Assembly: GCA_042408215.1 (NCBI GenBank)
Contig: JAYFMW010000026.1
Location: 64,001-128,000, forward strand
Direction: 5' to 3'
DNA length: 64,000 nt
Source of the DNA: Microcoleus sp.
GTDB lineage: Bacteria > Cyanobacteriota > Cyanobacteriia > Cyanobacteriales > Microcoleaceae
Made by a program: the position numbers and the translations under genes. Of the stretch, positions 49,029-53,414 are shown in pieces; the first letter of the stretch is position 1, and each line of letters starts with the position of its first letter. Below the pieces are notes generated by a model that was not told the origin of the DNA, made no database searches, and was given only the letters and a program-made list of their open reading frames with translations.

Positions 49029-50066
49029 TTACTCATCTTCAGCATAGATAAACCGATACAATTCACTAGGATCTGGCTCGGCGCTTTTCTCAGCAAAATC
49101 CACCGCATCATCAATTACTGCTTCAATCTTTTTGTCGATCGCCTTTAATTCTTCAGCAGTCGCCAAATTGCGATCGATCAAATCAGCAGCCAACTTCTTA
49201 ATCGGATCGCGAGGGAACCAAAATTCCTTCTCTTCCTTAGAACGCAACTCATCAGGATCGGCCAAAGAATGCCCCCTAAAACGATAAGTCAACGCCTCAA
49301 TCACCGTCGGTCCCTCACCAGCCCGCGCCCGCGCCACAGCTTCTTTAGCTACTTCTCGCACCGCCAAAACATCCATCCCATCAACCTCAACCCCAGCCAT
49401 ACCAAAAGCATGAGCCTTCTTGTAAATCAATGGGTCAGAAGTAGCACGTTCATGGGACATCCCGATCGCCCATTTGTTGTTTTCCACCACATAAAGAATC
49501 GGCAACTTCCACAAAGCCGCCATATTCAAACACTCAAAAAACTGACCGTTATTCGCAGCACCATCGCCAAAAAAACAAGCAGTCACACCATCGGAGCCCT
49601 CATCTCCCAAAGCTTCACGGCGATACTTAGATTGAAAAGCCGCCCCCGTAGCCACAGGAATCCCCTCAGCCACAAAAGCATAACCTCCCAACAGTCGATG
49701 TTCCGCCGAAAACATATGCATCGAACCGCCACGGCCCTTCGAGCAACCTGTCTCTTTCCCGAACAACTCCGCCATCACTTCCCGCGCCGGCACTCCGGCG
49801 CTCAAAGCGTGTACGTGGTCGCGATAGGTGCTGCTAACATAGTCCGTGTCATCCCGGCGCATCGATCGAATCACCCCAGTAGAAACAGCCTCCTGGCCGT
49901 TGTACAAGTGAACAAAACCGAACATTTTGCCCCGGTAATACATCTCGGCGCACTTGTCCTCAAAAAAGCGCCCCAAAACCATATCTTCGTAAAGCATCAA
50001 ACCTTCATCACGAGAAATACTGACGCTTGTTGCGTCAAAAACTGGCAAAGTCCGTTCCTGAACCAT
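49029..50066 (-). CDS. pdhA: Pyruvate dehydrogenase E1 alpha subunit
   Basis: [30 protein letters not shown]. Confidence 0.96.
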
Positions 50067-50102
50067 AAATCTTTAATACCCGATCGGCTTCCTAGACATC
50101 AT

Positions 50103-50568
50103 AAAAAAGTTCGGTAAGTGGGAAACTCAGAGTCTTTAGACCTGAGAGGGAAACGACGCGGGTGGTTTTAACCACCGTGAATCTTTTTTTTCATCACCGC
50201 CTTGGGATTGCTTAGCTTGGGGTACTTTTGTAATGCACTTTCAACGGGACACTTCGGCTACGCTCAGTGCATCGCAATTACCGTTTCAAGCTTCACAACC
50301 CGCGATCGCATGATGTTTGCCCTTGTGAGGCCTCCCTTTCGGGGTAAAGTTCGCTTCGTCAATGCGATCTGGGCTTGTTAGGTTGGCAACACTGTAAAGC
50401 GTGACTTTAGAACTGTTTAATTGACAACGACAGAGCAAGGAACTAGCGTCGCATCAAGCGGGTGTCGTGACCCAAATAACGGAGTTTTTTCAAACTGAGA
50501 CTGGTCAATATAGCTTGGTTTGAGCATGGCTCTTACAAGCTCAGTGGCTTTAGCCCTGAGTTATTGAC
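50103..50568 (-). mobile_element. Non-autonomous IscB-type IS200/IS605 element (omega/HEARO RNA retained, ORF deleted)
   Basis: GTCAATAACTCAGGGCTAAAGCCACTGAG left hairpin; CTCAGGTCTAAAGACTCTGAGTTTCC right hairpin; ORF collapses at a HIP1 site right after ATG. Confidence 0.75.
50312..50568 (-). ncRNA. HEARO / omega RNA scaffold
   Basis: Ordered motifs TTGACCAG.CTCAG, CGTT, ACACC..GATGC, CTAGT..CTCTG, TAAACAG, CAGTG, CATTG.CGAAG..AACTTTACCCCGAAAGG (recognised from memory, not scored). Confidence 0.72.
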
Positions 50569-50588
50569 TATTTAAACGCAGATGAGAC

Positions 50589-50887
50589 TTGACACTCCCC
50601 GGTCTAAAGACACGGGGATGCTTAAGGACAAACTTTGGGGGATGAATCCACCCAAATCTTGATGCTTAAAGGGTTTGTCAATAACCCACTACCCACTCGC
50701 CCATTGCTGAGTCTATGGCTACTTGTGGTAGGCATTTGCTGGTATAGACCTGCGTCTGTGTATCCATCCCACATTTTTATGGTAACAGAATGTGGTTTGT
50801 GTCTTGCATAAAGAGGGCTGGCTGGATAAATCCTGCAACGCCCTTTCATCCCTGGACTAAAGTCACAGGGTTTTCAGGGTATTCTTT
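50589..50887 (-). mobile_element. Non-autonomous TnpB-type IS200/IS605 derivative
   Basis: Left hairpin CCCTGTGACTTTAGTCCAGGG preceded by TTAT; right end CCCCGTGTCTTTAGACCGGGGAGTGTCAA; no transposase or TnpB ORF. Confidence 0.7.
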
Positions 50888-51089
50888 ATAAGCGCAGCAG
50901 AAAATGGTCGAACATTTTCAAAGCAGGTCACAAATCTTTGTTAAAATCAGCTTGAATAGGCGATTTCACCAAGACTCGGACAACCAAATCTCGTGTCAAG
51001 TCGGTTAAGTTGTCCATAATGCTTTTGTTAAAAACCAACCTTAGTTAAGATAGGCTAATTCAGTTGCTAGCGCTTTGGGGAAGTGGACA

Positions 51090-53414
51090 GTGTTAATTCC
51101 ACTAGATTATTACCGGATTTTGGGTCTACCGATTCAAGCTACTGCCGAACAGTTGCATCAGGCTCATCGCGATCGCACTTTACAGCTTCCACGCAGGGAG
51201 TATTCCGAAGTTGCGATCGTCGCCCGCAAACAACTGCTCGATGAAGCCTGCGCCGTTCTGTCAGACTCAGACGGGCGCAAAGCTTACGATGCCAGTTTTT
51301 TAGCCAAAACTTACGATCGCGAGTCAGAAGCCGGAAGTTCAGCCCGACCCCTGTCTAGGTCAAAAATCCTTGACTCAGGTACCGGCACAGTTTTGCAAGA
51401 CTCAGAAGAAACCTCGGAGCCAGAATCCAGGGCTTTAGACGCCACTCCCGACCCCCACACTCCAAGTATAGAAATCGATGACAACCAATTCGTAGGAGCC
51501 CTGCTCATACTGCAAGAACTGGGGGAATACGAAATCGTACAGAAGCTGGGTCGCCCGTATCTCAACAATGGCAGCATCGCGATCGCCGAAGGTCGTTTCG
51601 GCGACAAAGAACTCGTGCGGCCCGACATAGTTTTAACCGTAGCCCTAGCCTACCTAGAACTCGGTCGCGAACAATGGCAGCAAGGTCAATACGACTCAGC
51701 CACCAAATCATTAGAAGCAGGTCAAGAACTACTGCTGCGCGAAAGCCTATTTCCAAGTGTGAGGGGTGAAATGCAAGCCGACATATACAAACTCCGTCCG
51801 TACAACATTTTAGAGTTACTGTCCCTCCCCGAAGAAAAAGTCGCCCAGCGTCGCCGTGGACTGCAAATCCTGCGAGAAATGCTCCAAGAACGGGGCGGCA
51901 TAGACGGCTCAGGGGACGATCGATCGGGCTTGGGAATAGAAGACTTCCTGCGCTTCGTCCAGCAACTACGCAAGCACCTAACCAGCAGCGAGCAGCAGAC
52001 CCTATTTGAAGCCGAAGCCGGCCGCCCCTCCGCAGTCGCCACCTACCTCTCGGTCTACACCCTATTAGCCCAAGGATTTGCAGCCAGACAGCCCTCCATG
52101 ATCCGCCGCGCCAAGCTGATGTTAATGCAGTTGGGCCGCCGCCAAGACGTTCACCTCGAAAAAGCCGTGTGTTCCCTGCTGCTCGGCCAGACAGAAGAAG
52201 CCAGCAGAGCCCTCGAACTCAGTTCCGAAAAAGAACCCCTCGCCTTCATTCGCGAAAATTCCCAAGATTCTCCCGATTTGTTGCCCGGGCTGTGCTTGTA
52301 CACCGAACACTGGCTACAAGAAGAAGTGTTTCCCCACTTCCGCGACTTGGTAAACCAATCCGTCTCCTTAAAAGATTACTTTGCCGACCCCAAAGTACAA
52401 GCCTACCTAGAAGCATTACCCTCAGACGCAGAAACCGCCAACGAATGGGTAGTCGTGCAGCCCCGTGACCGCAAGCCCCAACCACGACTGCAATCGAGCA
52501 GCACACTCCAACCCGCCGCCACAGCTTCACCACGAGCAGGTACTGTCACCTTGACCCCGGTAGCAGCAGGCGCCGGAACCCCACCTGGACGCCCCAAATA
52601 CGAGGGGAAGGCTGCCACGCACCTCCCCCCCACAGCCACCAAGAGCGCCACAGCAGCCACGACCTTGCGCCCGTCGCCAACGACCTCAAAAGAGCGCAGA
52701 CGCCCAAATTCATCCCGCCGCTGGGCGACAGGCGCTCTTTCAACGGGTGCCCTGGTCGATCGGGCCCGCACAGCCAGAACACAAATTTCAGCCAAACTCA
52801 AGTCCATGCCTCGCAATAGGCTGGCTCTGTTCGTAGTCGCAGGTGTTCTGGGCTTCTTAATCCTGTGGTGGATACTCAGTCTTTTGGCCAACGCCCTACA
52901 AGCCGTGTCAGGCCCATCCAGCCCATCCCCGCAAGGAGAGCCAACCCAAATCAGCCCGGAAGCCCCACCCAGAGAAATCCCCGCACCCGCAGCCACTCCC
53001 CCAGAGCCTCCCGCCCCAGCCCCAGCTTCTGGCCCAATCACAGAGGAAGTAGGCGGGCAAATAATTAAAAGCTGGCTGGCCGCCAAAGCAGCAGCCTTGG
53101 GCCCCAACCACGCTGTCGATGAATTAAAGCAAGTGCTGACAGAACCGGCTCTATCTCGCTGGCAATTGATGGCAGAAGCTCAACAGCGAAACAACGCCCA
53201 CCAGCAATACGAACACACCCTCGAAGTTAAAGAAGTTCGCCCCAATCCAACCAACCCCGATCGGGCAGAAGTAGAAGCCCAAGTAACAGAAAAAGCCGAT
53301 GTCTTCGAGGGCACGAGCCAAACTACTTCCCGCAACGAAAACCTGCGGGTGCGCTACGAATTAATCCGCCAAGATGGACAGTGGCGAATTATGGATTGGC
53401 AAGTTATGAAGTAG
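51090..53414 (+). CDS. ftn2: Cell division protein Ftn2/ZipN (ARC6 homolog)
   Basis: IPLDYYRILG J-like domain, KLRPYNILELL, DLLPGLC, C-terminal TM plus IMS domain. Confidence 0.9.
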   Translation: MLIPLDYYRILGLPIQATAEQLHQAHRDRTLQLPRREYSEVAIVARKQLLDEACAVLSDSDGRKAYDASFLAKTYDRESEAGSSARPLSRSKILDSGTGTVLQDSEETSEPESRALDATPDPHTPSIEIDDNQFVGALLILQELGEYEIVQKLGRPYLNNGSIAIAEGRFGDKELVRPDIVLTVALAYLELGREQWQQGQYDSATKSLEAGQELLLRESLFPSVRGEMQADIYKLRPYNILELLSLPEEKVAQRRRGLQILREMLQERGGIDGSGDDRSGLGIEDFLRFVQQLRKHLTSSEQQTLFEAEAGRPSAVATYLSVYTLLAQGFAARQPSMIRRAKLMLMQLGRRQDVHLEKAVCSLLLGQTEEASRALELSSEKEPLAFIRENSQDSPDLLPGLCLYTEHWLQEEVFPHFRDLVNQSVSLKDYFADPKVQAYLEALPSDAETANEWVVVQPRDRKPQPRLQSSSTLQPAATASPRAGTVTLTPVAAGAGTPPGRPKYEGKAATHLPPTATKSATAATTLRPSPTTSKERRRPNSSRRWATGALSTGALVDRARTARTQISAKLKSMPRNRLALFVVAGVLGFLILWWILSLLANALQAVSGPSSPSPQGEPTQISPEAPPREIPAPAATPPEPPAPAPASGPITEEVGGQIIKSWLAAKAAALGPNHAVDELKQVLTEPALSRWQLMAEAQQRNNAHQQYEHTLEVKEVRPNPTNPDRAEVEAQVTEKADVFEGTSQTTSRNENLRVRYELIRQDGQWRIMDWQVMK

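Follow-up and report, generated by a model that had tools for sequence, protein, structure and literature searches.

A dual transposon site upstream of a pdhA-like gene

The analysed window is a 64-kb stretch of a Microcoleus genome (G000:C26:64001-128000) whose assembly comprises 7.36 Mb in 30 contigs; G000 denotes this genome, other G-numbers the genomes compared with it, C-numbers contigs and L-numbers compared loci. Upstream of a pdhA-like gene in this window, we characterized a site that reads, in minus-strand order (50891-50099), TTAT, a 299-nucleotide (nt) TnpB-type element, a 20-nt spacer, a 466-nt HEARO element and ATGA. As judged from sequence comparison, the site is probably the product of two independent IS200/IS605-type insertions into one short stretch of host DNA, so that the spacer would serve both as the 3' guide of the TnpB-type element and as the 5' guide of the IscB-type (HEARO) element.

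The features of the site all read on the minus strand. TTAT (50888..50891), the flanking target or target-adjacent motif (TAM), lies 5' of the left end of the TnpB-type element. The element itself (50589..50887), here also called element A, runs from AAAGAAT to GGGGAGTGTCAA and is a protein-less IS200/IS605 derivative of the kind described as palindrome-associated transposable elements (PATEs) or miniature inverted-repeat transposable elements. It is followed by the spacer GTCTCATCTGCGTTTAAATA (50569..50588) and by the HEARO element, a protein-less ISC element (50103..50568; GTCAATAAC...ACTTTTTT) that consists of the HEARO RNA, which is the IscB omega-RNA scaffold (50344..50568), and a 241-nt tail with the distal transposon end. 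ATGA (50099..50102), the second target/TAM motif, lies directly 3' of this element.

The relative G008, whose flanks are 98% identical to those of the window, carries an empty allele that reads ...CTGCTGCGC TTAT GTCTCATCTGCGTTTAAATA ATGA TGTCTAGG.... This allele is scarless and without target duplication, and both elements are cleanly missing from it as blocks. Because G008 reads TTAT-20nt-ATGA, it establishes TTAT and ATGA as the flanks, the 20-mer as host DNA and the boundaries of both elements. The original prediction, made from the letters of the window alone, had placed a TnpB-type and a HEARO element at these boundaries with a guide-length spacer of exactly 20 nt (50588-50569) between them, and had foreseen an empty TTAT-20nt-ATGA allele upstream of pdhA. 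That allele is present in G008 and confirms the spacer length and, by keeping both tetranucleotides, their role as flank motifs; the boundaries are further supported by the HEARO model match described below, which begins at GTCAA, and by 12 full repeats of the TnpB-type element. The spacer 20-mer has a single occurrence in the 7.36-Mb genome, and neither TTAT nor ATGA is found at this place in more distant relatives.

Scanning the whole 64-kb window at the Rfam gathering threshold returned one match, RF02033 (HEARO) at 50344-50568 on the minus strand (114.1 bits, E 8.6e-23; gathering cut-off 83 bits), which spans model positions 1-211 of 211 and begins exactly at GTCAA. Directly downstream of this HEARO there is no IscB open reading frame (ORF) with RRXRR and HNH domains, and 241 nt of transposon end stand there instead. 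Four ORFs of 50-75 amino acids (aa) inside the two elements matched no Pfam family above cut-off, in agreement with the prediction that neither element encodes a protein.

The two elements are arranged tail to tail, with their right ends facing the spacer, opposite transposase top strands and identical RNA senses. In the portions of the published work on which we draw (10.1101/2023.03.14.532601, PMC4810608), the TnpB guide comes from the flank on the 3' side of the right end, and the TAM adjoins the left end. The empty allele indicates that the guide position of the HEARO element is external to the transposon, on the 5' side of the scaffold and with a 3' ATGA. The geometry of the site fits the published guide and TAM rules for both nucleases, as had been claimed. 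Since the TnpB-type insertion spares N20+ATGA and the HEARO insertion spares TTAT+N20, a single spacer could be the guide of both.

Both elements bear subterminal imperfect hairpins at each end, lack terminal inverted repeats and have a precise empty site, which are the features of PATEs. In the TnpB-type element, the left-end hairpin CCCTGtGACTTTAGTCCAGGG (50850..50870), with a bulged T and a TTTA loop, lies 17 nt from TTAT, and the right-end hairpin CCCCGtGTCTTTAGACCGGGG (50597..50617), followed by AGTGTCAA, has been retained by 48-50 of the 50 unique sequences of the family; the right-end stem co-varies among right-end subfamilies, as seen in alignment rows. In the HEARO element, hairpin CTCAGgGCTAAAGCcaCTGAG (50540..50560) starts 8 nt from the HEARO 5' end and forms the first internal stem of the HEARO model, and its plus-strand view is the transposase-type right-end hairpin of the element; hairpin CTCAGgtctaaagactCTGAG (50126..50146), 23 nt from the distal end, is in plus-strand view the left-end hairpin. 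All four hairpins share one design, with a 5-base-pair outer stem, a bulged T, a GNC/GNC inner stem and a TTTA loop, which reads on the transposase-relevant strand, that is, the plus strand for both hairpins of the HEARO element. The host gene downstream, pdhA-like and encoding a pyruvate dehydrogenase E1 alpha-like protein (49029..50066; Pfam E1_dh, 2.7e-86), starts 32 nt past ATGA, and ATGA itself opens only a 9-codon ORF. The opposite flank is formed by a divergent ARC6/Ftn2-like gene.

Full-length relatives, nucleases and transposases in the same genome

A BLAST search against G000 revealed that the 299-nt TnpB-type element is a genomic repeat. Its 12 full copies show 96.3-100% identity; TTAT precedes each of the 12, and no two share a 3' flank. 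Its first ~72 nt and last ~132-140 nt are the two ends of longer elements of 1.45-1.62 kb, in which they lie 1.3-1.4 kb apart. Eight such full-length tnpB elements were examined; every one is preceded by TTAT, six contain an ORF of 405-431 aa, and their right ends are 86-89% identical to that of the 299-nt element. One 405-aa ORF was scanned and matched OrfB_IS605 (8.2e-18) and the Cas12f1-like TNB domain (9.3e-8). Because its ends match those of tnpB-encoding elements, the 299-nt element is an internally deleted, protein-less derivative of them, and it is this homology to their 3' ends, not Rfam, that assigns it to the TnpB type. The 405-aa ORF family is exemplified by C17:348719-349936 and its paralogues, and by eye we saw no obvious glutamate in the usual second RuvC motif of this TnpB family.

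The last 145 nt of the TnpB-type element are present in 62 copies in G000, 50 of them unique. The consensus fold of this closer family has 40 pairs, each kept in 46-50 of the 50 sequences, with compensatory change in 7 pairs only, and the single-sequence fold of the window copy has a z-score of -2.2. This fold was used in place of one global alignment of 70 right-end subfamilies, which gave 3 consensus pairs only. The 299-nt element keeps the right-end region from which TnpB omega-RNAs derive, a putative scaffold.

HEARO matches number 70 in G000, of which 64 are above the cut-off. In 18 of the 70, an ORF of 402-445 aa lies within 100 nt 3' of the HEARO, and one such iscB candidate, scanned with Pfam, proved to be IscB (RRXRR, 3e-72, plus HNH). 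The distal ~85-157 nt of the window's HEARO element recur at other HEARO elements of the genome, and the end motif TTCCCACTTACCGA..TTTTT was found at 28 places, with ATGA directly after it in 28/28 (among them C5:596342, C8:84299, C6:209966 and 50099-50102 of the window). Cyanobacterial ISC elements are described as targeting N|ATGA in the part of PMC4810608 that treats them. At 19 of the 28 ends, the flanking ATG opens an ORF of at least 80 aa, so that those elements sit exactly between host leader and start codon and have the same orientation as the gene. Counted at E up to 1e-10, HEARO copies amount to 7 in G418, 35 in G006, 77 in G422, 27 in G008, 17 in G005 and 70 in G000. A relaxed Rfam scan of 49900-51200, at E up to 10, gave four other matches (E 1.3-9.7), all outside the TnpB-type element; one of these, snoR79 at 50161-50201 (E 9.7), falls within the tail of the HEARO element.

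Y1 transposases are also encoded in G000, with 20 Y1_Tnp matches, 13 of them at 86.8 bits or above and 12 of these 13 free of internal stops. The check for cognate nucleases attached to the original prediction thus yielded candidates, since the same genome contains tnpB and iscB elements of full length whose ends are related, as well as Y1 transposases.

Allelic states and recurrence of the paired elements

The pairing of the two families is not confined to the window. The right-end motif GGGAGT[AG]TCAA occurs 137 times in G000, and four of these right ends precede a HEARO start on the same strand by 20, 22, 27 and 35 nt (in the window and at C1:90967, C5:595816 and C8:83915), which amounts to 4 of the 70 HEARO copies. 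The next nearest distances between a right end and a HEARO are -46 nt, in a nested pair on opposite strands, and then at least 665 nt. By our arithmetic, random placement would predict ~0.01 such pairs. We also compared the occupancy of potential target sites under a null that treats all sites as equally tolerant. Among the 12 TTAT sites found 15-60 nt upstream of HEAROs on the same strand, 4 are occupied, versus 137 of 19,030 non-coding TTAT sites genome-wide, so that 0.086 pairs are expected (Poisson P 2e-6); opposite-strand TTAT sites upstream of HEAROs are occupied in 0 of 15. The reciprocal comparison gave a similar picture, with a HEARO at 4 of 18 ATGA sites lying 15-60 nt downstream of right ends versus 70 of 15,828, and 0.08 expected. 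For the 66 HEAROs outside dual loci, unoccupied TTAT sites 15-60 nt upstream number 8 on the same strand and 15 on the opposite strand, which are small numbers.

Comparison with relatives uncovered the intermediate states. At the window locus, only empty and dual alleles are found among the relatives compared. At the C1 locus, aligned sequences show TTAT, TnpB-type element, spacer and ATGA without HEARO in G005 and G008, TTAT, spacer, HEARO element and ATGA without the TnpB-type element in G422, and both elements in G000; several further relatives are apparently empty, as indicated by 22-nt gaps in match coordinates. At the C8 locus, the TnpB-type element stands alone in G005 (L048), the HEARO stands alone in G008 (L047), and G000 has both. 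The C5 locus is empty in G014 and G012, holds only the HEARO in G422 and holds both in G000. The single-element alleles at C1, C8 and C5 are as precise as the empty allele. Since empty, TnpB-only and HEARO-only alleles exist, the two elements move independently.

Moreover, the pairs were not copied as a unit. The HEAROs of the other dual loci are only ~72-77% identical to that of the window while the C1 TnpB-type element is 99% identical, which indicates separate events; duplication of a composite element is ruled out by this HEARO divergence together with the single-element alleles. The spacer at C8 was originally 56 nt long and was reduced to 35 nt by a 21-nt deletion in G000 (C8:83916-83950), so that the G000 HEARO guide there no longer matches its own empty site.

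The HEAROs at the C5 site differ between genomes. Those of G422 (L054, G422:C245) and G000 (C5:595844-596342) have a common 3' part and different 5' halves (GTCAACCACCCA... vs GTCAGTAACTCA...), suggesting that separate insertions took place at one and the same ATGA or that HEARO copies exchanged sequence. At the same locus, ~220 nt upstream of the HEARO-facing right end (C5:595557-595816), there is another terminus that resembles a right end, ...GGGGAGTATGTCAA, which suggests a stack of small protein-less elements. At C7:188813-188858, a HEARO element is nested inside a TnpB-type right end in opposite orientation, and its 20-nt "guide" is right-end sequence.

We also considered whether both families might persist only in transcribed 5' leaders, which would account for their spacing and orientation. 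This is ruled out for the TnpB type, because its right ends are placed like random sites: 12/137 lie at most 60 nt upstream of a same-strand gene start, compared with 352/4,000 random non-coding TTAT sites, and the next gene shares the strand of the right end 47 times and has the opposite strand 34 times (control, 1,418 and 1,259). An earlier, cruder count of 17/137 right ends at 20-45 nt had seemed to be an excess and is superseded by this control comparison.

Searching 401 genomes of the order for the right-end motif, 15-45 nt and a HEARO start produced, apart from those in G000, 19 matches spread over 17 genomes. Only 1 of the 19 proved to have a HEARO by Rfam; it is in a genome of another family of the same order (G398; L017, G398:C8:60060-60124), with a 43-nt spacer and a HEARO of 125.9 bits. 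For two of the 19 loci, the contigs of 255 and 508 nt are too small for a judgement. As the search pattern is tied to one right-end motif, these counts do not measure how common the arrangement is.

Origin of the pairs and relation to known systems

In the sequence of events that we propose, a Y1 transposase (TnpA) acting in trans would have inserted each element separately: on the minus strand the TnpB-type element would have entered on the 3' side of TTAT, and on the plus strand the HEARO element on the 3' side of TCAT. Alleles that lack the TnpB-type element (TTAT+N20) would afterwards be cleaved by TnpB from other loci of the genome, and those that lack the HEARO element (N20+ATGA) by IscB. 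Insertion of the two at one place had been the original prediction's own fallback, two independent insertions at a hotspot, and the allele data favour this origin. Our leading view of the recurrence is a local hotspot, whether through site tolerance or through single-stranded DNA made by a nuclease.

What brings the two families together can be explained in two main ways. Short non-coding stretches that happen to hold both motifs may simply tolerate both insertions, with no interaction between the elements and with the shared guide as an accident of spacing; we regard this as a reasonable possibility, if somewhat short of an even chance. It agrees with the existence of all allelic states, with gains and losses independent of each other, with spacers that vary (20, 22, 27 and 35 nt, the last originally 56) as motif-set spacing would, and with the site restriction of HEARO ends, 28/28 of which are at ATGA and 19/28 of which open an ORF of at least 80 aa. 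However, occupancy near a partner element is ~45-50 times the genome-wide rate, all four pairs have one orientation despite 15 opposite-strand sites, no other pair lies between 46 and 665 nt, and the right ends show no gene-start preference (12/137 vs 352/4,000). Alternatively, and with a rather low probability in our judgement, the nuclease of the first element cuts the empty allele and the second element is drawn to the site: resection would bare single-stranded DNA, the substrate that TnpA requires, and the strand left with a 3' end would present the motif of the other family in the orientation needed for insertion; an R-loop at the guide could act similarly. The strand- and distance-specific enrichment speaks for such coupling, with 4/4 pairs on the same strand at 20-35 nt and 0/15 opposite-strand sites occupied. 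So does the placement of TnpB-type right ends, otherwise like that of random non-coding TTAT sites with respect to genes, since a shared gene-start niche cannot then explain the pairing. The opposite top strands would in addition mean that the two elements did not both enter the lagging-strand template of one fork direction. Precedents in the literature, as far as the portions consulted of each source go, are ISDra2 transposition triggered by radiation-induced genome fragmentation (PMC2806898) and the cutting of donor joints by the nucleases (10.1101/2023.03.14.532601). Against coupling, the events number just four, all of them in a single genome, and the pattern search of 29 other same-genus genomes did not find the arrangement. 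Resection is usually kilobases long and does not by itself predict use of the nearest site, the C8 spacer was originally 56 nt, and the cutting itself is presumed. The differing 5' halves of the C5 HEAROs in G422 and G000 hint at repeated independent hits on one site, which a plain hotspot would also explain.

Two further explanations concern function rather than origin. The original prediction had proposed that one transcript could form a scaffold-guide-scaffold RNA bound by TnpB and IscB together. Both scaffolds and the spacer are indeed co-linear on one strand, and a 481-nt contig from a public RNA library covers 50138-50618, extending from the HEARO through the spacer and 30 nt into the right end; another contig of the library covers 49900-50139, from pdhA. 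These are assembled contigs, from which RNA ends and levels are not readable, the RNA library may contain DNA, and the DNA runs yielded a 222-nt contig over 50394-50615; no contig joint in the public runs skips exactly either element. Each mature RNA would need the spacer as a free guide, and cleavage on either side would leave one functional RNA, so that only one mature RNA could keep the single guide. Usual guide lengths are ~16-20 nt, and the 27-56-nt spacers at other loci exceed them. Single-element alleles show, moreover, that each element persists alone. We therefore consider a dual RNA serving both nucleases very improbable. The elements could also be inert relics that are no longer transcribed, bound or mobilised, with a spacer that guides nothing, as might be argued from the lack of proteins in cis and of a promoter match, from contigs that do not prove RNA, and from the C8 deletion, after which the G000 HEARO guide mismatches its empty site. 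This we find unlikely, given that 11 other copies match the TnpB-type element at 96-99% identity, which indicates recent spread, that both insertions are absent from a relative with 98% identical flanks, that the HEARO matches the full model, and that ORFs of intact length for tnpB, iscB and tnpA are present in the genome.

Returning to two independent insertions with a shared guide as the probable explanation, several observations weigh against it. On the TnpB side, 50589-50891 has no Rfam match even when E is allowed to reach 10, so that the proposed covariance-model check succeeded for the HEARO (114.1 bits) and gave no match for the TnpB-type element, whose putative scaffold may be incomplete. 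The TnpB family is a putative nuclease: when its sequence is read by eye, the CxxC...CxxC zinc-ribbon cysteines are missing ahead of the last RuvC motif (..NADVNGAANI), and a PDB sequence search with a TnpB of the 405-aa family gave 0 matches. TTAT is shown for no more than two of the four right ends, as the one at C5 follows ..TATAT and the motif at C8 was seen by eye only. On the IscB side, the closest iscB-linked HEARO (C8:38348) is ~78% identical to that of the window, and the compatibility in trans of tnpB and iscB products with the window elements is assumed at these imperfect identities. Expression is likewise a weak point, since the RNA contigs carry the limits given above and a promoter/terminator scan found no minus-strand promoter consensus match, with counts not above those of shuffled sequences. 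The equal tolerance of all sites assumed for the enrichment is surely wrong to some degree. Finally, the arrangement was not found in the other same-genus genomes, although most of these assemblies are fragmented and two adjacent repeats may not assemble; the 29 include ten added later, with 0 matches among those ten, and the less fragmented G418 (6 contigs, 7 HEAROs) and G006 (60 contigs, 35 HEAROs) also have none.

Cas12 and Cas9 descend from TnpB and IscB, nucleases that naturally serve to retain their transposons by cutting the emptied site. Here, two nuclease families would converge on one target, where neither insertion destroys the motif and target of the other. All four allelic states exist in close relatives, which makes these loci a natural test bed for nuclease cooperation, transcript competition and insertion bias, and for two compact nucleases of a single organism the loci supply TAMs naturally matched with their guides (TTAT-N20 and N20-ATGA). 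A more far-reaching reading, in which the RNA-guided cut of one transposon makes a single-stranded landing pad for the second, so that the elements recruit each other and police the site jointly, seems to us unlikely. If nuclease cutting did attract TnpA insertion, it would be a simple natural form of RNA-guided transposition, linking RNA-guided cleavage to the target choice of TnpA and offering a route to convergent guide-bearing pairs.

The components of the site belong to known kinds, namely PATEs, HEARO and ISC elements with the N|ATGA target, and what appears to be undescribed is the convergent pair sharing a guide, its recurrence and its four allelic states. The literature searched, including the review PMC13565253 in the part available and with supplements and subscription papers outside its scope, contained no guide sharing between TnpB-type and IscB-type elements. 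PATE-type elements, in the portions of 10.1101/2023.03.14.532601 that we used, resemble those at the window site in their subterminal hairpins, the motif by the left end and the right-flank guide, and in having no transposase or nuclease in cis, with full-length relatives and TnpA elsewhere in the genome. They are described there singly, whereas here two nuclease families face each other across one spacer. The closest parallel on the ISC side is ISC1-1_MA with its IS605B partners (Kapitonov et al. 2016, PMC4810608). The features in common, by the sections on these elements, are a terminus of 5'-GTCA, duplication-free insertion at N|ATGA, an opposite-strand arrangement of iscB and tnpB with respect to the shared ends, and an inferred use of the same or related Y1 transposase. 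In that system, however, the TnpB partner shares the N|ATGA target, whereas the TnpB-type family of the window uses TTAT; the window's ISC element has also lost iscB, and pairing across a common spacer is not described in those sections. Compared with RF02033 HEAROs in general, the window copy is alike in its full-length match and in the guide position just 5' of GTCA, and it differs in carrying 241 nt of transposon end instead of an HNH/IscB ORF. Nested or tandem IS200/IS605 insertions likewise cluster elements in one intergenic region; in contrast to these, neither element at the window site is interrupted, their ends and motifs are intact, and the spacing between them equals a guide length.

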